A DNA stretch of 64,000 bases, taken from the NCBI GenBank assembly GCA_036002485.1, contig DASYTI010000019.1:11990-75989 (forward strand), given 5' to 3'. The position numbers and the translations under genes were made by a program. Origin of the DNA: Candidatus Methylomirabilota bacterium (GTDB taxonomy: Bacteria; Methylomirabilota; Methylomirabilia; Rokubacteriales; CSP1-6). The notes below the pieces were generated by a model. The model was not told the origin of the DNA. It worked only from the letters and a program-made list of their open reading frames with translations, and did no database searches. This document shows, piece after piece, positions 3,526 to 45,314 of this stretch (positions are counted from its first letter, which is position 1; each line of letters opens with the position of its first letter).

Positions 3526-4881
3526 CTACCCGTAGATCTTCCCTAGCTCGTCCGCCGCCCACTTGACCGCGTCCTCGGCCTTGGTGCCCTGGCAGGCCTT
3601 GGCGTACATGTCGGTCAGGATGTACTTCGAGTAGACCTCGGTGGCCCGGGCCGACGGCGGCCCCGCGTAGCCGATCATCCGCGAGGCGGCGGCGGCCTGG
3701 CGGTAGATTCTCATCGGCGCGTCAATGGTGTTCCACATCGGACTCTGCTCCCAGTACTTCGTCGAGCCGACCGAGAAGCCGTCGGCGACGAGGAACCATT
3801 TGCCGAACTGCTCCTTGCCGTGGAGCCACTTGAGGAAGTCCTTGGCGAGCTTCGGGTTCTTGCCGTACTTCATCACGGCATGAGAGAAGGCCACGTGGTA
3901 CGCCCACGTCCCCGCCGGCCCGTTCGGGATGGGCCCATGCTGGATGTCCTTGACCATGGGCTCGCCCTTTTCGTCCTTGATCTTGTCCTGGCCCCGCTTG
4001 GCCGCGATGTAGATGCTGGCCCCGTTGAGGGTGGCCGCGATCTCGCCGGAGAGGAAGGCCCGGTTGTTGCTCGTGTCGTCCCAGGCGAAGCCGCCCTCGT
4101 CGCAGGCGTCCTTCCAGAAGGCCTGCATGAACTTGACCGCCTCGACGGTCTCCTTGCTGTTCAGCACGACCTTCTTGCCGGGTTTGTCCACTTCCGCGCC
4201 GCCGAAACCCCAGGTGAGGGGATAGGCCCAGGCCGGAGCGTCACCGAAGGTGTGGCCGAGCGTCTGGCCGATGGGGTGGCCCTTCTTCTTGAGCTTCATC
4301 CCGACCTGGCGCAGCTCGTCGAGGGTCTTCGGCCACGACGTCTGGCCCACCTCGTCGAACCACGACTTCCGGTAGGCGAACTGGAGCCCCACGATGCCGT
4401 GGGGCAGGGCGAGCCAGCGCTTGCCGTCCTTGGCGGCCGCCTCGGACTGGGCGTAGTAGCCGCCCTGGTCCTTGCCCTGCCACTCGCCCAGATCGGTCAC
4501 GTCCACGAGGCCGTTCTGGTAGAGGTGCGGCCAGTTGTGCAGCATCTGGATGATGTCCGGTCCCGCCCCCGACTGCATGGCGGCGGTGATGCGTGGCTGC
4601 AGGTCGTTGCCGTTGATGAACTCGAAGACGACCTCGGCGCCGAGCGCCTTCGAGGCCTCGGGCGCCTGGCGCTTGAGCTCTATGTCGCAGGCGGGGATGA
4701 AGTCGACCCAGCGCAAGATATTGAGCCGCGTCCCCTGCGCGAAGGCCGGCGCGCGGCGCGCCGCGAGTATTCCCTCGATACCGGTGGCCGCCATCCCCAC
4801 CGCAGCCGACCCCGCGATGAACCGTCGACGCGTCACGCCGGACGTTACGCCGTGCCCATCGAGTTCTGGATTTTGCATCAT
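3526..4881 (-). CDS. ABC transporter extracellular solute-binding protein (family 1, sugar-type), Tat signal
   Basis: MMQNPELDG..VTRRRFIAGSAAVGMAATG twin-arginine signal. AAGGAG RBS 6 nt upstream of the ATG at 4881. SBP-family fold throughout. Confidence 0.85.
   Translation of the reverse strand: MMQNPELDGHGVTSGVTRRRFIAGSAAVGMAATGIEGILAARRAPAFAQGTRLNILRWVDFIPACDIELKRQAPEASKALGAEVVFEFINGNDLQPRITAAMQSGAGPDIIQMLHNWPHLYQNGLVDVTDLGEWQGKDQGGYYAQSEAAAKDGKRWLALPHGIVGLQFAYRKSWFDEVGQTSWPKTLDELRQVGMKLKKKGHPIGQTLGHTFGDAPAWAYPLTWGFGGAEVDKPGKKVVLNSKETVEAVKFMQAFWKDACDEGGFAWDDTSNNRAFLSGEIAATLNGASIYIAAKRGQDKIKDEKGEPMVKDIQHGPIPNGPAGTWAYHVAFSHAVMKYGKNPKLAKDFLKWLHGKEQFGKWFLVADGFSVGSTKYWEQSPMWNTIDAPMRIYRQAAAASRMIGYAGPPSARATEVYSKYILTDMYAKACQGTKAEDAVKWAADELGKIYG

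Positions 4882-34153: not shown

Positions 34154-34154
<1 letters not shown>
32892..34154 (-). CDS. gdhA: NAD(P)-specific glutamate dehydrogenase
   Basis: Start MAEMPEFESE. Conserved GLPYGGAKGG catalytic Lys-Gly motif and the GFGNVG Rossmann motif. ATG overlaps the glgX stop (TGATG). Confidence 0.9.
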
Positions 34155-36307
<2,153 letters not shown>

Positions 36308-36312
36308 GGAGA

Positions 36313-38514
36313 TCAGCCCTCGCTCGGGGAGAGCCACACGGCGGCGAGCGGAGGGAGGGTAAGCAGAACCGAATGAGGCTGGCCGTGCCAGGGAACCGGC
36401 TCGCCGACCACGCCTCCGCGATTGCCCATGTCGCTGCCGCCGTAGTAGGCGCTGTCCGTGTTGAGGATCTCCCGGTAGAATCCGCCCCGCGGCACGCCCA
36501 CGCGATACCCGTGCCGCGGCACCGGCGTGAAGTTGCAGACGCACACCGTGAGGTCGCCCGGCCTCCGCCCGAATCGCGCGAAGGCCACGATGCTCTGGTC
36601 GGCATCGCTACAGTCCATCCAGGCGAATCCCGCGGCCTCGCAATCCAGTTGATGCAGCGAGAGCTGCCCCCGGTACTGCCGGTTTAGGTCCGCCACCAGC
36701 CGCTGAACGCCTCGATGGTACGGCCCCTGGTCGAGCAGGTGCCAGTCCAGGCTCTTGTCGTGGTTCCACTCGTCCGACTGTCCGAACTCCCCGCCCATGA
36801 AGAGGAGCTTCTTGCCGGGATACGCCCACATGAAGCCGTAGAGCAGGCGGAGGTTGGCGAAGCGCTGCCAGTCGTCGCCCGGCATCTTGCGGGCGAGCGA
36901 GCGCTTGCCGTAGACGACCTCGTCGTGGGAGAGGGGCAGGACGAAGTTCTCCGTCCAGGCATACAGCAAGCCGAAGGTGAGCTGGTTATGGTGATACTTC
37001 CGGTGGACGGGCTCGTTGCGCAGGTAGTCGAGCACGTCGTGCATCCAGCCCATGTTCCACTTGAGCCCGAACCCGAGTCCACCGAGATGGACGGGCCGCG
37101 AGACCATGGGCCACGCCGTCGACTCCTCGGCCACCGTGACCACGCCAGGGTGCACGGCGTACACGACCTCGTTCAGGCGCTTGAGAAAGGCGATGGCCTC
37201 GAGATTCTCGCGTCCACCGAAGACGTTGGGCACCCACTCGCCGGCCTTGCGTGAGTAATCGCGGTAGATCATGGAGGCCACCGCGTCCACGCGCAGCCCA
37301 TCCACGTGATAGCGCTCCAGCCAGAAAAGCGCGTTGCCGAGGAGAAAGTTCGCGACCTCGCGCCGACCGAAATTGAAGACGCGCGTGCCCCAGTCGGGGT
37401 GCTCGCGCTCGCGCGGATCGGCGTGCTCGTAGAGGTGCGTGCCGTCGAAGTACGCGAGCCCATGCGGGTCCTTGGGGAAGTGGGCGGGCACCCAGTCAAG
37501 GAGGACCCCGATGCCGCGCCGGTGCAGGCGATCCACAAAGGCCATGAAGTCGTGGGGGCGGCCGTAGCGGCGCGTGGGCGCGTAGTACCCGATGGTCTGG
37601 TATCCCCACGAGCCGTAGAAGGGGTGCTCCATGACGGGGAGCAGCTCCACGTGGGTGAACCCCATCTCCGTGGCATGGTCCGCGAGCTGGTCGCCCAGCT
37701 CCTGGTAGCTGAGGAACCGGTTGCCCTCCCCCGGCACTCGTCGCCAAGAGCCCAGATGCACCTCGTAGACGCTCATGGGGGCATCGAGAGCCTGGCGGCG
37801 GGAGCGCTCGGCCAGCCAGGCGCCATCCCCCCAGGTGAAACCGTCGAGCCGTTCGACCACGGAGGCGGTGCGCGGCTCCTCTGGCTCGAAGCCGAAGCCA
37901 TAAGGATCACTCTTGAGGGCCAGGGGCGCGCCGGATCGGGACACGATTTCGAACTTGTATCGGGCGCCTTCGGGCACGCCGGGCAGGAAGAGCTCCCAGA
38001 TGCCATTGCCGGGATGGAGCCGCATCGGATGGCTGCGCCCGTCCCAGCCATTCCAGTCGCCCACCACGGATACCCGCTTCGCATTCGGCGCCCAGATGGC
38101 GAAGATGATGCCCCCCACGCCTTCGAGCGTCGCCGCATGCGCGCCCAGCTTGTCGTAGATGCGGTAGTGGGTACCCTCACCGAGCAGGTGGAGGTCAAAG
38201 CCCGAGAGGGTCGAAGGGAAACAGTACGGGTCTTCAATCTCTGCCGTATGTCCCCCGCCGTACGCCGCGCGGAGATGGTACCGGACGGGAAGGCGGCCGG
38301 GAATCTCACCCTCCCAGAGACCGGCGGGATGCAAGGATTTGAGCGGGTGCGAAAGCTTGGTGCCGTCGAGCGGGACCACGGACACCTCGACGGCGCCGGG
38401 CAGGAAGGCCCGGACGATGACCCCGTCCGTGGCGGGATGAGGGCCCAGGATGGCGAAGGGATCGCCGTGCTCTCCGCTGACGAGGGCCTGGACGGTTTCG
38501 CGGGAAAGGCTCAT
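36313..38514 (-). CDS. glgB: 1,4-alpha-glucan branching enzyme
   Basis: 733 aa. N-terminal CBM48 and GH13 motifs ([25 protein letters not shown]). Confidence 0.9.
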
Positions 38515-38545: not shown

Positions 38546-39901
38546 CTAGAAGGAGCGGATGAGGCGCTCCACCCGCTCGTCGTGGCTCTGGAACGGGTCC
38601 TTGCAGAGGATGGTCTCGCGCTCGGGGTCGTTGAGCTTCAAGTACACCCAGTCCACGCGGTAGTCCTTGCCTTTGAGGTTGGCCTGCCGGATGAACTCGC
38701 CGCGCAGCCGCGCGCGGGTGGTCTGCGGCGGGATGTGCTTGGCGCGCTCGATGATGTCGTCGCTGGTGATGCGATCCACCATGTCGTGCTTCACGAGCTG
38801 GAAGTACACGCCCTTGTGCGGCCGGATGTCGTGGTACTGCAGGTCCATGAGCGAGACCTTGGGGTCGCGCCAGGACAGGCGATGCTTCTCCATGAAGGAC
38901 TCGATGATGCGCTTCTTGATGACCCAGTCGACCTCGCGATGCAGCTCCATGGGGTCCGTATGCAGCGCCTCGATGACGTGGGTCCAGCGCCCGAGGACGT
39001 CCTTGGTCACGGGGTCGGCGTCGATCGACTGGACATATCGCGTGGCGTGCTCCAGGTATTCCGTCTGCAGCTGGAGCGGGGTGATGGTGCGCCCATCCTT
39101 GAGCCGGACCGTCTCGCGCAGGGAAGGGTCGTGGCTGATGTCCCGGATGGCCTGGACGGGGGACTGCAGACTGTAGTCCCGGTCGAAGAACCCGTCCTCG
39201 ATCATGTCGAGGATGAGGGCGGTGGTGCCCACCTTGAGGTAGGTGGCGACCTCGGACATGTTCGAATCGCCCACGATGACGTGGAGGCGGCGGTACTTCT
39301 CCGCGTCAGCGTGGGGCTCGTCGCGCGTGTTGATGATGGACCGCGAGGAGGTGGTGGCCCCCGAGATCTCCTGGCAGATATGCTGCGCCCGCTGCGAGAG
39401 ACAGTAGTGGAAGCCCCGGGGGGTCTGCAGCACCTTGCCCGCGCCCGCGAAGATCTGGCGGGTGACGAAGAAGGGGATGAGGCCCTCGGCCAGACGCTGG
39501 AACGACACGTCGCGGCTGACCAGGTAGTTCTCGTGACAGCCGTAGGAGTTGCCGGCGGAATCGGTGTTGTTCTTGAAGAGGAGGATATTGCCGGAGATCC
39601 CGTCCTCGCGAAGCCGCTTCTCCGCCTGATGCAGGAGATCCTCGACGATGCGCTCGCCCGCCTTGTCGTGGATGACCAGGTCGGCGATGTCGTCGCACTC
39701 GGGGGTCGCATACTCGGGATGGAAGCCCGTGTCGAGATAGAGCCGCGCCCCATTCTCGAGGAAGACATTGGCGTTCCGCGCCCCCGGGATGACCTTCTCG
39801 AAGAGGTAGCGGGCGACGTTGTCGGGCGAGAGACGCCGCTGGCCGTTGAGCGTGCACGTCAGACCGTACTCGTTTTCCAAGCCGAAGATGCGGCGTTTCA
39901 T
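38546..39901 (-). CDS. pafA: Pup--protein ligase PafA
   Basis: [37 protein letters not shown] matches the PafA N-terminus. Carboxylate-amine ligase fold. Lacks the Dop-specific insertion. Confidence 0.85.
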
Positions 39902-39968
39902 GTGGGCCTCAGCGTAGCAGGGGAGAGGACGGGAGGCAAGGATTGCCTTTGGCCGTCGGGCGGATGCG

Positions 39969-40661
39969 CTACTTGTCGTCGGCGAGGAGCTGATGGAGCA
40001 CGGCGGGAGGGATCCGGCGGAACTTGCGGCGCTCCTTACCGCGGTCGAGCACGGCCACTTCCAGGTCACGCTCGGTCAGGGTTTTGTTCTGGGTCACCAT
40101 GAGGGCCCGAACTCCCAGCTTGACCGCGCCCGAGAAGTCCAGGCCTTCCTGATAGTTGTCCTTGAGATAGCGCCGGATCTCGTCGGACTGCCCACCCATG
40201 GCCGCGTAGTTCTTCTCGTCCTCGATGGTGCCGTCATAGAGGATGTGGTAGATCTCATTTTTGGTGCCGTCGCTGTCGCCCACCTCCACCACCAGCACCT
40301 CGACCTCGAAGGGCTTGATGTCCTGGGTGAAGATATTGCCGAGGGCCTGGGAGTAGGCGTTGGCGAGGGACTTGGCCGTCACGTCCCCGCGGCTGTACGA
40401 GTAGCCTTTGATGTCCGCGTGCCGGACGCCCGCCACTCGGAGGTTCTCGAACTCGTTGTACTTGCCCACGCCCGCGAAGGCAATCCGATCGTAGATCTCC
40501 GAGATCTTGTGGAGCAGGGCCGAGGGGTTCTCGGCCAGGAGCAGGACGCCGTCGCGATACTCGAGGGCCACGATGGCCTTGCCGCGCGAGATGCCCTTGC
40601 GAGCATACTCCGCCTTGTCCTTCATCATCTGCTCGGGCGAGACGTAGTAGGGCAGCGGCAT
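39969..40661 (-). CDS. prcA: Proteasome subunit alpha
   Basis: [33 protein letters not shown] is a canonical bacterial 20S alpha-subunit N-terminus. Confidence 0.9.
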
Positions 40662-41473
40662 CAGCTACCCCCTCGCTCGGCGAGGATGGCTTCGCAGTAG
40701 CGGCGGATCTCCTCGTCGGAAACCTCTCCGAAGCCCGAGCGGGTGATGGTCTTGACCGTGGGATAGATCCCGCGCTGGAGATCCGGCCCCCCCGTGCCCA
40801 GATCTTCGTCGGCCGCGTCCATCAGGGCCTCGATGGACACCCGCACCGCCTCGTCTTTGGACAGGTCACGCTTGAAGCGCTTCTTGAGGGAGTCCCGCGC
40901 GTCCTTGCCCCCCGAGCCTTGGGCGAAGTAGTCGGTCTCCTCGTACCGGCCTCCCGTGACGTCGTACTTGAAGAGGCGCCCCACCCCCGCGCGCTCGTCG
41001 AAGCCCGCGAAGATGGGCACCACCACGAGGCCCTGCATGGCCAAGGGCAGGTTCATGCGGATCATCTGGCCGAGCTTGTTGGCCTTGCCATCGAGCGAGA
41101 GATTCTCACCCTCGACCTTCTCGTAGTGCTCGAGCTCGGTCTGGAAGAGACGCGCCATTTCCATGGCGGGCCCCGCCGCGCCCGCGATGCCGATACCAGA
41201 GAGATCGTCCGACCTGAAGATCTTTTCAATGCGACGGGAGGCGACCTGGTACCCCTCGCTGGCCTGGCGGTCGCCTGCCATGATCACGCCGTCGCGGTAT
41301 CGGAGGGCGAGAACCGTGGTGCCGTGGGGGACGGTCGGGGGACTATTCGTCTCCCTCGGCACGTCCTCGCCCTGAGGAAGTAGGTGAGGCGCCGAGTGTC
41401 GCAAGACGTCCGCGAAGCTCGAGGTGGCGTACCCGAAGAACACGCCTTCCCAGCGGCTGGGCTTGTCGTTCAC
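40661..41473 (-). CDS. prcB: Proteasome subunit beta with propeptide
   Basis: About 52-aa propeptide followed by catalytic Thr in GTTVLALRYRDGV. GTG start overlaps the dop stop (GTGA). Confidence 0.88.
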   Translation of the reverse strand: MNDKPSRWEGVFFGYATSSFADVLRHSAPHLLPQGEDVPRETNSPPTVPHGTTVLALRYRDGVIMAGDRQASEGYQVASRRIEKIFRSDDLSGIGIAGAAGPAMEMARLFQTELEHYEKVEGENLSLDGKANKLGQMIRMNLPLAMQGLVVVPIFAGFDERAGVGRLFKYDVTGGRYEETDYFAQGSGGKDARDSLKKRFKRDLSKDEAVRVSIEALMDAADEDLGTGGPDLQRGIYPTVKTITRSGFGEVSDEEIRRYCEAILAERGGS

Positions 41474-42969
41474 ACGTCCCCCGCGGGCTTGCCGAGGTTG
41501 CGGAGAAGATCGCCGGCCGTGGGGCTGTCGGCGAAGAGCTGGCGGACGTGCGCCTCGGTCCCGCGAAGCGGCTCGAGCATGAAGATCTTCTTGAGCGGGC
41601 CTTCCTTGAGGTCGAAGATCACCGAGTCCCACGAGGCGGACACGACTTCGTCGGCGTACTTCTGCAGGCACATGCCGCGGAAGTAGGCCCGGGTGTCCTT
41701 GGGCGGGTCATAGATCGCCTTGGTCACTTCGTCCTCGGTGGTGAGCCGCTCGACGGCGTCGGACTCCTCGAGCTTGTAGTAGAGACCCTTGCCCGGACGA
41801 ATGTCGTGATACTGCAGGTCGATCATGGCCACGCGGGAGTCGGACCACTCGAGCCCGTGCTTGGCCATGTAGCTCTGGATCAGCGCCTGCTTGATCACCC
41901 AGTCCAGCTCCCGATCGAGGCTCATGGGGTCCTTGGCCAGCTGATCCAGCACGGTGCCCCAGCGCAGCATGACGTCGTCGACCCACGGCTCGTGCTCGCG
42001 TCCGGCGTAGTAGCGCTGGGCCAGGGCGAGGTACTCGCGCTGCAGATCCACGGCGGTGAGCGCGCGGCCATCCTTGAGCCGGAACGTCTCCCGGCAGGTG
42101 AGATCCCGCGAGACCTTCCGATACGCCAGCACCGGGCTCTCCAGCGAGAGGTCGCGCTCGATGAAATCGTCCTCGATCATGCTGAGGGCGATGGCCATGG
42201 TGCCGACCTTGAGGTAGTTGGAGACCTCGCTCATGTTCGCGTCGCCCACGATCACGTGCAGGCGGCGATAGCGCTCGGGGTCGGCGTGGGGCTCGTCGCG
42301 GGTATTGATGATGGGTCGGCTGTGCATCGTTTCCAGACCGACCTCGGTCTCGAGGAAGTCGGCCCGCTGGGAGATCTGATAGTCGCAGTGCTCGGTGTTG
42401 TTCTCGGCCCCCACCTTGCCCGACCCCGTGAAGACCTGGCGGCTCACGAAGAAGGGCATGAGGTGCTGGACGATGCGCGCGAAGGGCACCTTGCGGTCCA
42501 TGAGGTAGTTCTCGTGGGTGCCGTAGGAGTTGCCCTTGGAGTCCGTGTTGTTCTTGTAGATGAGGATCCGCTGCTCGGGCGGCGACACCGCCTCCGCCCG
42601 TGAGCGCGCCAGATTCAGGATGCGCTCGCCCGCTCGGTCCCAGATGACGCAATCGCGCGGATTGGTCGTCTCGGGGGAGGAGTATTCAGGGTGGGCGTGG
42701 TCGACGTAGAAGCGGGCGCCGTTGGAGAGGATGAGGTTGATCAGGCGCGACTCTTCCTTGGAGGGCGCCTCCTTCTCCTCCATGTACTCGAAGCCTCGCG
42801 CGTCGCGCAGGGGGCTCTCCGCCTCGTAGTCCCAGCGGATACGTGAGGACCGGTAGGTCTCGTACGAGTTGATGAGCAGGAGAGACGAGAGAATCGGATT
42901 GAAGTCGGGCTGGTTCTTGACCGTGATGCCGTACTCGGTCTCGATGCCCATCACCTTCGGAATCGCCAT
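41470..42969 (-). CDS. dop: Pup deamidase/depupylase Dop
   Basis: MAIPKVMGIETEYGI plus the Dop-specific RWDYEAESPLRDARGF region. 499 aa. Confidence 0.85.
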   Translation of the reverse strand: MAIPKVMGIETEYGITVKNQPDFNPILSSLLLINSYETYRSSRIRWDYEAESPLRDARGFEYMEEKEAPSKEESRLINLILSNGARFYVDHAHPEYSSPETTNPRDCVIWDRAGERILNLARSRAEAVSPPEQRILIYKNNTDSKGNSYGTHENYLMDRKVPFARIVQHLMPFFVSRQVFTGSGKVGAENNTEHCDYQISQRADFLETEVGLETMHSRPIINTRDEPHADPERYRRLHVIVGDANMSEVSNYLKVGTMAIALSMIEDDFIERDLSLESPVLAYRKVSRDLTCRETFRLKDGRALTAVDLQREYLALAQRYYAGREHEPWVDDVMLRWGTVLDQLAKDPMSLDRELDWVIKQALIQSYMAKHGLEWSDSRVAMIDLQYHDIRPGKGLYYKLEESDAVERLTTEDEVTKAIYDPPKDTRAYFRGMCLQKYADEVVSASWDSVIFDLKEGPLKKIFMLEPLRGTEAHVRQLFADSPTAGDLLRNLGKPAGDV

Positions 42970-43006
42970 AAGTCCCCCGGACGCCCTCGTCGAGATGAGA
43001 ACAAAC

Positions 43007-43039
43007 GGCGGGAGGGGGCGATAGCGCTCCCCTCCCGCC
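43007..43039 (-). terminator. Intrinsic-terminator-like hairpin immediately after the mpa stop
   Basis: ggcgggagggg-gcgatagcgct-cccctcccgcc forms an 11-14 bp GC stem. On the mpa transcript it is followed by GUUUGUUCUC. Confidence 0.5.
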
Positions 43040-43046
43040 GCGGCGC

Positions 43047-44876
43047 TTACAGGTACTGGCCGGTATTGATGATGCGCTCGACCGCCCGCTGCTTCTCCTT
43101 CGTCTCACCCATGAGCGGCTTGACGTAGACGATACGCTCGCCCTTCTTGCCCGCGATCTTGGCCCAGTCGTCCGGGTTCGTGGTATTGGGCAGGTCCTCG
43201 TTCTCTTTGAACTCTTCGCGCACGGCGGCCAGGAGGTCGTCGAGGTTGATGCCCTTCTCGCTCGTCTGGATATAGCGCTTGAGGGCCAGCTTCTTGGCCC
43301 GGCGTACCACGGATTCGATCATAGCGCCCGAGGAGAAGTCCTTGAAGTAGAGGATCTCCTTGTCGCCGTTGGCGTAGGTGACCTCGAGGAACCGATTCTC
43401 CTCCTCCAGGCTGTACATCTCTTCCACGGCGGCGGCGATCAGACGATCGAGGGTCGGCTGCATCTCGCCGCCGTGCTGCTGGAGCTCGACCGCGTGGATG
43501 GGGAGGTCGCCCGTCAGGTACTTGTTGAAGATGTCCACGGCCGCGCTGCGGTCCGGCCGCTCGATCTTGATCTTCACGTCGAGCCGGCCGGGACGCAGGA
43601 TGGCCGGGTCGATGAGATCCTGCCGGTTCGAGGCGCCCACCACGATCACGTTCTTCAGGTGCTCGACGCCGTCGATCTCGGCCAGGAGCTGCGGGACGAT
43701 GGTCGTCTCCACGTCGGAGGAGATGCCCGAGCCGCGGGTGCGGAAGAGGGCGTCCATCTCGTCGAAGAAGACGATGACGGGGACGTCCTCGGCGGCTTTC
43801 TCGCGCGCCTTGATGAAGATCTCGCGGATCTTGCGCTCGGTCTCGCCCACGTACTTGTTGAGGAGCTCCGGGCCCTTGATGTTGAGGAAGAAGCCCTTGA
43901 CTTTTTCGCCCCGCTTCTCGGAGATCTTCTGGGCGAGATTGTTGGCCACCGCCTTGGCGATCATGGTCTTGCCGCAGCCCGGGGGGCCGTAGAGCAGGAC
44001 GCCCTTGGGCGGCGTCAGCTGATGCTCGCGGTAGTAATCGGCGTACAGGTACGGCAGCTCCACGGCATCCTTGATCGCCTCGATCTGGGTGGTGAGGCCG
44101 CCGATGTCCTCGTAGTTGATGTCCGGCACTTCCTCCAGGGCCAGATCCTCGACCTCGCTCTTGGGCAGCTTCTCCAGCAGGTACCCGCTCTTGCCGTCCA
44201 TGAGGATGTGATCGCCGACCTTGAGCTTCACGGAGCGCAGGGGATCGGCCACGATGCCGACCTTGTCCTCGTCGGCGCGAAGGGTCACCACGGCGCGGCC
44301 CTCCTCGAGCAGCTCCTTGAGGATGACCACGTCACCCTGGATCTCGTAGCCGGCCGCCTCCACCACGTTGAGGCCTTCGTTGAGGACGAGCTCCTGGCCG
44401 GGCTTGAGGGACTCGGCCTTGAGGGATGGATGCAGGTTGACCTTGACCTTGCGCCCCTGGGACAGCACGTTGATGGTGCCGTCCTCGTTCACCGAGAGGT
44501 ACACGCCGTACGTCGAGGGCGGCGCGCAGAGCTTGTCCACCTCTTCTTTCAGCGAGGTGATCTGCTCGCGCGCCTCGTAGAGCGCATTGACAAGCTTTTC
44601 GTTCTGGTTGAACGCCTGCACGAGCTGGCGATTGGCCTCGCGCAGCTTGTTCTCGAGCACCATGAACTCCTTCGGCGCGTCCTCGAGCTTCTTGCGCAGC
44701 CGACCCGTCTCGGCCTCGAGCGAATGCACGTAGGCCTGCAGGTCTTGGACCTGCACCTCGTACTCCGTCAGTCGGCGGCGGTAGTTGGAGTCGGACATGG
44801 GCAGAAACTTCGACAGTCCCTTCATTCCTTCAGACGACGGCTCCCGGCTTGGAGTCTTTTTCTCGAACTCCTTCAT
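43047..44876 (-). CDS. mpa: Proteasome-associated AAA ATPase Mpa/ARC
   Basis: N-terminal coiled coil, OB domains, Walker A GPPGCGKT, and the C-terminal proteasome-docking motif GQYL. Confidence 0.9.
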
Positions 44877-45314
44877 GTTCGCCCGTTCCTTTCTGGCTAG
44901 TTCAGCGGGCGCTTCCCTGAGAGCGAACCCCCCGCCCTCTGTGGGTGTGGCCGAAAGTTGCGCTCAGTATAGTGGTCCGTGTCGCGGCAAGTCAAGAGAA
45001 TTGGGGCCAATTGATCGTTCAGAGCCATTGAAATCATTCGACTTTTCCCACTTCCTCCCTTCGGCAACACCGATGGGTCTCAGCGATGAAACCCAATGCC
45101 CAAGAGACCCGTTCCTCGCCCATCCTAGATGGGTCTCTACCTTCTGAGCATAAGGGAAGCACGTTCGGTGCCATCGTCTCGGGCCGACGAGAACGCCCGA
45201 CCGAGGGCCGAATAGCGCATGAGTTCGCGATGATATTGCGGATTCGTTGAGCAACCGGCGATCCACGTCGGCGCGTGACGCGCCATGTGTCGGTCTTTTT
45301 GATATAAGGGCTCC

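Follow-up and report, generated by a model that had tools for sequence, protein, structure and literature searches.

A complete set of Pup-proteasome genes without a local pup gene in Rokubacteria

What does a Pup ligase attach to its substrates when no pup gene lies beside it? The question is raised by a 64,000-nucleotide stretch of DNA from a Candidatus Methylomirabilota bacterium (assembly GCA_036002485.1, contig DASYTI010000019.1, positions 11,990 to 75,989), hereafter called the window, whose G+C content is 64-70%. Between 38.5 and 44.9 kb it carries the genes of a proteasomal AAA+ ATPase (Mpa), a depupylase/deamidase (Dop), the beta and alpha subunits of the 20S proteasome (PrcB and PrcA) and the Pup ligase (PafA). 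The gene order is mpa-dop-prcB-prcA-pafA, and every gene is on the minus strand. A first-pass annotation of this DNA had described a complete Pup-proteasome gene set at 38546-44876, with no pup gene at the position between dop and prcB where actinobacteria have it. The coordinates proved correct, and all five products pass the curated cut-offs of their families. The absence of pup from the locus is real, ancient and lineage-wide, as it is common to 80 related loci.

The place where pup would be expected is occupied. At the dop/prcB junction (...GGG GAC GTG TGA ACG AC) dop ends with the codons GTG-TGA and prcB begins with GTG-AAC-GAC, so that the dop stop and the prcB start share four nucleotides (nt), GTGA. 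This overlap, reported in the first-pass annotation and verified in the sequence, fills the slot, and neither a pup gene nor a gene for UBact, the other known tag, was found between dop and prcB in the window. The GTG is the true start of prcB: the propeptide of Rhodococcus and M. tuberculosis PrcB can be aligned from residue 11 on, and Thr1 stands at residue 52. The propeptide of the window's protein is 51 residues long and ends in ...PHG directly before Thr1. The prcA ATG shares 1 nt with the prcB stop codon, and through the 4-nt and 1-nt overlaps dop, prcB and prcA are presumably translationally coupled. The two remaining spacers have the lengths first reported, 77 nt between mpa and dop, where a hairpin is located, and 67 nt between prcA and pafA.

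The same arrangement was observed in the relatives, as the first-pass annotation had proposed to check. The Dop protein was scanned against one genome per GTDB species, which gave 588 matches, and the best 80 of these were used. Their Dops are 84-98% identical to that of the window, and nearly all of the loci are labelled Candidatus Rokubacteria, Rokuibacteriota or Methylomirabilota. The order mpa-dop-prcB-prcA-pafA without pup is found in 80 of 80. In the 78 loci from which the dop-prcB distance was estimated, its median is 0.5 nt and it never exceeds 124 nt, and the other spacers of the operon are likewise too small for a gene of 60 amino acids (aa). Since the pup-less junction is common to all loci, the removal of pup is ancient.

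Two families of tag are known. Pup (PF05639/TIGR03687) ends in GGQ or GGE, and UBact (PF20513/NF033388) ends in R[TS]G[EQ]. Tag genes were sought in the 64-kb window, in an extension of ~16 kb (~6 kb and ~10 kb past its ends) and within ±8 kb in the 80 loci. The profile searches covered all six-frame fragments of at least 20 aa from the window and the 80 loci, and the lists of open reading frames (ORFs) of the window were inspected down to 25 aa. We used a narrow Pup hidden Markov model (HMM), a diverse Pup HMM for which 121 representatives were taken from an exhaustive search through 1.84 billion proteins, a UBact proxy sequence (searched with phmmer; the proxy itself scores 79.7 bits on NF033388) and a UBact HMM. 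Neither Pup HMM found a match in the window or the 80 loci; the best value for the diverse one was E = 7.7, and no pseudogene remnant was seen among the fragments. The UBact proxy and the UBact HMM gave no match in the same set. Taking all Pup and UBact searches of the window and the 80 loci together, nothing fell below E = 0.09, and the matches near that value were Gly/Arg-rich noise. Neither Pup nor UBact was detected in the ~6 kb and ~10 kb past the window ends, and scans of the window for Rfam families and tRNAs gave no match.

Inspection of C-termini led to the same result. The window has two ORFs of at least 20 aa that end in G[QE], at 17.9 kb and 25.6 kb, far from the operon, and both are Arg/Ser/Pro-rich alternative-frame junk; the first-pass statement that no ORF ending in GGQ or GGE surrounds the block is thus borne out. 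Among window ORFs ending in E or Q, the only coding-like ones are an ABC ATPase and a Zincin_1 peptidase. When ORFs of 30-160 aa outside known genes were clustered, no conserved small ORF with E or Q as its last residue emerged within ±8 kb of the 80 loci, and the clusters that did end in these residues were only alternative-frame-like families rich in S, R and P, on which ground a novel modifier gene beside the operon was rejected. A pup hidden inside the locus was rejected by the ORF lists, the G[QE]-terminus scan and the profile searches. The possibility, left by the first-pass annotation, of an overlooked or highly divergent pup within 38.5-45.3 kb is excluded, as there is no room for it and the Pup and UBact HMMs are negative in six frames. 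Other hiding places were considered as well. The 438-nt region upstream of mpa contains only basic, non-conserved ORFs; it can be aligned in the closest relatives only and therefore encodes no conserved protein, and a pup gene at this site was rejected. A fusion of Pup to Mpa, Dop, PrcB, PrcA or PafA was rejected because the termini of these proteins align end to end with the canonical ones, and a Pup within the PrcB propeptide was dismissed as well, the propeptide being an ordinary one that ends in ...PHG.

The five proteins, in turn, are intact. Mpa scores 750.2 bits with TIGR03689 (cut-off 504.75 bits) and contains the Pfam domains Prot_ATP_ID_OB_N, Prot_ATP_ID_OB_C and AAA; it has a coiled coil at the N-terminus, then the double OB domain and the AAA module, and ends in the docking motif GQYL. 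Its alignment with M. tuberculosis Mpa (7px9; 677 bits) spans residues 50-609, and the Walker A and B motifs, the second coiled-coil helix and the GQYL motif are retained. In its N-terminal half the coiled coil gives a poor alignment to the M. tuberculosis protein. Dop scores 629.6 bits with TIGR03688 (cut-off 492.3 bits) and 575 bits against the Acidothermus Dop (5lrt, 4b0r). The catalytic Asp is present in VDHAHPE and the Dop-loop Trp in RWD, and the equivalents of R90 and Y92 (GARFY), of T217 in the alpha-loop (LETM) and of W453 (ASWDS) are conserved. W47 has its equivalent as well, and the catalytic and Pup-contacting residues named in PMC8599861 are thus kept. It is known that the Dop-loop Trp reorders upon Pup binding and that T217 of the alpha-loop makes a hydrogen bond to the residue at Pup's C-terminus (PMC8599861). 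PafA scores 627.8 bits with TIGR03686 (cut-off 551.3 bits) and 414 bits against C. glutamicum PafA (4b0t, 4bjr), and its catalytic Asp is conserved.

Selection on the five genes was quantified by the ratio of nonsynonymous to synonymous substitution rates (dN/dS), which was computed against the related loci in 50-79 genome pairs at a dS of ~0.7. The values were 0.11 for pafA, 0.13 for mpa, 0.14 for dop, 0.14 for prcA and 0.20 for prcB. Purifying selection of this kind on PafA and Dop suggests that both are maintained as working enzymes and would imply a substrate tag. A ligase and a deligase so well conserved as a pair point to a common substrate.

Which of the known systems does the locus belong to? 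Pup-bearing metagenome loci supplied 40 full-length Dop and 23 PafA sequences with which the enzymes were compared. The identity was 48-56% for Dop and 57-63% for PafA. Against Nitrospira/PVC-type UBact loci it was 36-42% for Dop, 34-38% for Mpa and 32-35% for PafA. A neighbour-joining tree places the rokubacterial PafA as the sister of the whole group of 23 Pup-type PafAs sampled, whose members share 67-94% identity with one another. The Pup-type Dops are 45-97% identical among themselves, and the distance of the rokubacterial Dop falls inside that range. Based on these identities and on the tree positions of PafA and Dop, the rokubacterial system is of the Pup type on a branch of its own. 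Membership in the UBact-type family is rejected, by the tag gene as well as by the similarity of the enzymes. The actinobacterial frame of the first-pass annotation calls for correction as to the host, which belongs to the Rokubacteria/Methylomirabilota and not to the Actinobacteria.

Among known systems the actinobacterial Pup-proteasome locus (mpa-dop-pup-prcB-prcA ... pafA in M. tuberculosis, Acidothermus cellulolyticus and Rhodococcus) is the closest. It shares with the window all five protein families, their order, the coiled coil, double OB domain and GQYL of Mpa, the Dop-loop and the long PrcB propeptide. The locus carries Mpa, Dop, PafA and the PrcB/PrcA core; the pup gene is the component that it lacks. 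The differences are that dop and prcB of the window overlap by 4 nt with no pup between them, that pafA follows prcA directly without pafBC, and that the host belongs to a Gram-negative candidate phylum. UBact systems of Nitrospirota and PVC bacteria (mpa-dop-UBact-prcB-prcA-pafA) likewise occur outside the Actinobacteria and agree with the window in gene order and enzyme families. Unlike in the window, their modifier gene still stands between dop and prcB, and the UBact-type Mpa is without GQYL. Corynebacterium and Bifidobacterium have lost prcBA and keep pup, dop, pafA and arc (PMC6466877). They resemble the window in the lineage-specific loss of one component from a conserved locus, and they represent the reverse case, in that the protease was lost and the tag kept, whereas the rokubacterial locus retains the protease and no longer has the tag gene. 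Dop/PafA homologues are known to occur sporadically in NC10 and other phyla (PMC7947786). Beyond that passing mention of Dop/PafA, our search found no literature on pupylation or pup in Rokubacteria/NC10.

How unusual the arrangement is can be judged from the position of tag genes elsewhere. Among the 80 metagenomic pup loci listed in a Pup-profile scan, pup adjoins dop and/or prcB in 79. On the 80th, a contig of 1.4 kb, an HNH/endonuclease-VII-like ORF comes after pup; judging by their spacing, other loci may carry this insert too. In all UBact loci examined (Nitrospira CP092079, a 1.66-Mb contig of a metagenome-assembled genome (MAG) and several soil contigs) the tag gene stands between dop and prcB. 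The slot is therefore nearly invariant in Pup-type and UBact-type systems. The C-terminus of Pup is almost invariant as well across Pup-type loci (...LDEID.VLE.NAE.FV..YVQKGGQ).

Several further features of the canonical loci were recorded in passing. In three database ORFs (P0241, P0258 and P0305) two or three Pup-like stretches follow one another in tandem; P0241, of 188 aa, has three, with an internal ...VQKGGQ succeeded by another Pup-like repeat. Such ORFs could be read-through tandem Pup genes or real poly-Pup precursors. Many actinobacterial metagenome loci have a pup-prcB spacer of 550-900 nt (L096, L100, L101, L105, L128, L165). In locus L138 the ORF in this space (450-1013) encodes a Cys-rich HNH/endonuclease-VII-like protein of 187 aa, which may be a recurrent small insert in the canonical pup locus. 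Very abundant soil UBacts of 57-58 aa (MP[DE]RIQKPQP...RYRQRTG[EQ]) lie in dop-UBact-prcB-prcA-pafA clusters (L081-L088, L089). On several soil UBact contigs prepilin-type or H-X9-DG-like genes, and not mpa, are directly upstream, and the Mpa of the soil UBact locus L089 has 539 aa and is without GQYL.

The explanation that we favour, and on balance regard as the probable one, is a working Pup-proteasome system with pup at an unlinked locus. The pup gene would have been cleanly excised from the dop-prcB slot in the rokubacterial ancestor, leaving dop and prcB coupled through the GTGA, and the tag gene would now lie unlinked to the operon, beyond the ~80 kb examined. Judged by homology, PafA would attach a small Pup-like tag through its C-terminal Glu to lysines of the substrates, and Dop would either deamidate this tag or take it off. 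The coiled coil of Mpa would bind the tag and feed the substrate to the PrcAB 20S core. A tag encoded elsewhere is favoured because the enzymes are canonical and under purifying selection, and from this we infer that a Pup-family gene exists elsewhere in the genome. Since the Pup-type Dops are equally divergent and the Pup C-terminus is nearly invariant all the same, a tag recognisable as Pup-like would be expected for Rokubacteria. Several points weigh against this reading. No Pup or UBact attributable to Rokubacteria was found in any search. In three protein-database searches no match bore a Rokubacteria name among the best 120 listed, which were only actinobacterial Pups or UBacts on canonical loci. 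A 'Methylomirabilota' UBact (P0130) was considered as the missing tag and rejected, as it lies in a dop-UBact-prcBA-pafA cluster of its own with a Dop only 36% identical and with PVC-like pilin neighbours. Its contig is probably mis-binned, the catalogue that holds the bin also labelling Rokubacteria-type contigs as archaea, and it provides no usable rokubacterial tag. With the count of 79 given above, unlinked pup genes look rare. PafA also places Rokubacteria outside every sampled Pup-bearing lineage, so that the tag could have diverged. The exhaustive profile search returned 2877 Pup representatives at E <= 0.001, the best 150 of them all with typical actinobacterial-type C-termini, and the metagenome Pup-profile scan gave only canonical loci among the 80 listed. 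With only the best 80-150 matches listed, the protein and metagenome searches are not informative about the absence of Pup in Rokubacteria.

We consider it rather unlikely that a Rokubacteria genome combines the full PafA/Dop/Mpa/20S machine with no Pup or UBact gene anywhere, whether through a third tag family or through a tag-free mode. The former would be an undescribed family of small modifiers with a C-terminal Glu or Gln, encoded elsewhere, invisible to the Pup and UBact profiles and used by PafA, Dop and Mpa. Tag families can evidently drift past recognition, given that the Pup and UBact profiles are blind to each other (the best UBact under the diverse Pup HMM has E = 12), and both the branching of the rokubacterial PafA outside the 23 Pup-type PafAs (57-63% against 67-94% among those) and the poor alignment of the N-terminal half of the Mpa coiled coil speak for this reading. 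The enzymes are, however, much closer to the Pup type (48-63%) than to the UBact type (32-42%), the Pup-type Dops are as divergent from one another as from the rokubacterial Dop with no change in the Pup C-terminus, the Dop residues that contact this C-terminus are conserved, and the 80 genomes have no conserved E/Q-ending small ORF within ±8 kb; a third family is thus decidedly unlikely. It is highly improbable that there is no protein tag at all, with Mpa-20S degrading untagged substrates and PafA and Dop turned to other uses, such as the ligation or hydrolysis of another gamma-glutamyl substrate. This would agree with the lack of a modifier gene in ~80 kb here and in ±8 kb of 80 genomes, with a dop-prcB deletion that is clean, ancient and present in all loci, and with the tag-independent proteasome routes known in mycobacteria (PMC6466877). 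It sits poorly with the strong purifying selection on PafA (0.11) and Dop (0.14), with the retention of the catalytic residues, of the Dop-loop Trp that senses Pup binding and of the Mpa coiled coil, and with parsimony, as a ligase/deligase pair would be kept in a proteasome operon without a shared substrate. An artefact, be it a mis-assembly, a local deletion in one contig or a missed pup pseudogene or small ORF, is effectively refuted. Small ORFs are often overlooked, and some related MAG contigs (L019, L044) contain frameshifts or N runs, but 80 assemblies, obtained independently in different studies and with different sequencing technologies, have this pup-less order, four JGI samples contain near-identical contigs, and the six-frame HMM searches detected no remnant in fragments of at least 20 aa, their best value being E = 7.7.

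The operon also has features that may bear on its expression. Folding of the mpa-dop spacers of 72 Rokubacteria loci gave a median minimum free energy (MFE) of -53 kcal/mol, and the loci inspected among these have a GC-rich stem of 11-17 bp and a T-rich tail after mpa. The stem sequence varies by sub-lineage (GGCGGGAGGGG, GGCGGGGGGGAG, GGGGTGGGGGG, GGGGGGGCC). Since the hairpin persists while its sequence differs, both arms must have changed together, and the hairpin looks structurally conserved. It probably acts as an intrinsic terminator or attenuator between mpa and dop-prcBA-pafA, which suggests that it sets the ratio of Mpa to the products of the downstream genes. A consensus scan upstream of mpa gave one sigma-70-like promoter candidate against 0.8 expected by chance, which is weak evidence; the proximal ~200 nt of this region are conserved, in the closest relatives only.

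Downstream of pafA lies directly glgB, the gene of a branching enzyme (GlgB_N, CBM_48 and alpha-amylase domains), with a second CBM_48/alpha-amylase protein beyond it. The pafA-glgB neighbourhood is kept in the closer Rokubacteria loci and not in every locus. The two glycogen ORFs overlap by ~230 nt, and one of the starts is therefore probably further downstream. The positions of all features are collected in Table 1.

Table 1. Positions of the Pup-proteasome genes and neighbouring features in the window
Feature	Position	Strand	Description
mpa/arc	43047-44876	minus	proteasomal AAA+ ATPase, 609 aa
dop	41470-42969	minus	depupylase/deamidase with Dop-loop, 499 aa
prcB	40661-41473	minus	20S proteasome beta subunit, 270 aa, PF00227
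prcA	39969-40661	minus	20S proteasome alpha subunit, 230 aa, PF00227
pafA	38546-39901	minus	Pup ligase, 451 aa
GC-rich hairpin, 17 bp, then GUUUGUU	42997-43041	minus	in the mpa-dop spacer; MFE -45.7 kcal/mol, z = -2.97
candidate sigma-70-like promoter, TTGACT-18-TATACT	44966-44995	minus	~90 nt upstream of the mpa ATG; from a consensus scan
terminator-like hairpin	38553-38578		overlaps the pafA stop codon
glycogen-gene ORF	36313-38514	minus	downstream of pafA
glycogen-gene ORF	34154-36544	minus	downstream of pafA

The related contigs gave some indications about the quality of the public data. Rokubacteria-like Dop contigs (84-92%) were met in SMAG bins labelled Nitrosotalea and Nitrosocosmicus (archaea), Verrucomicrobiia, Deferrimicrobiaceae, Limnocylindria, Binatia and Acidoferrum (L003, L008, L009, L010, L014, L022, L039, L045 and L078), and a PVC-like UBact contig (L084) is filed as Methylomirabilota. 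These odd labels look like bin contamination, and the taxon labels of SMAG bins are unreliable for small contigs. On a long-read MAG contig (L019, 10305-12416) the coding sequences of prcA and pafA each run through two or three frames, probably owing to sequencing indels and not because they are pseudogenes, and in L044 a run of N (4125-4141) falls within prcA.

What, then, does the missing gene mean? An abundant lineage of soil and groundwater keeps the enzymes and the protease under strong selection with the tag gene gone from the operon, which makes it a clear exception to the arrangement of the other systems. The exception is solid and lineage-wide, and its likely explanation, relocation, is a modest one. 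If the tag has merely been relocated, its supply can be regulated apart from the machinery, and the Rokubacteria would provide a defined outgroup for the co-evolution of PafA, Dop and Pup. If these genomes hold neither Pup nor UBact, they would contain a new bacterial protein-tagging modifier or reveal a new activity for the Pup-ligase family.

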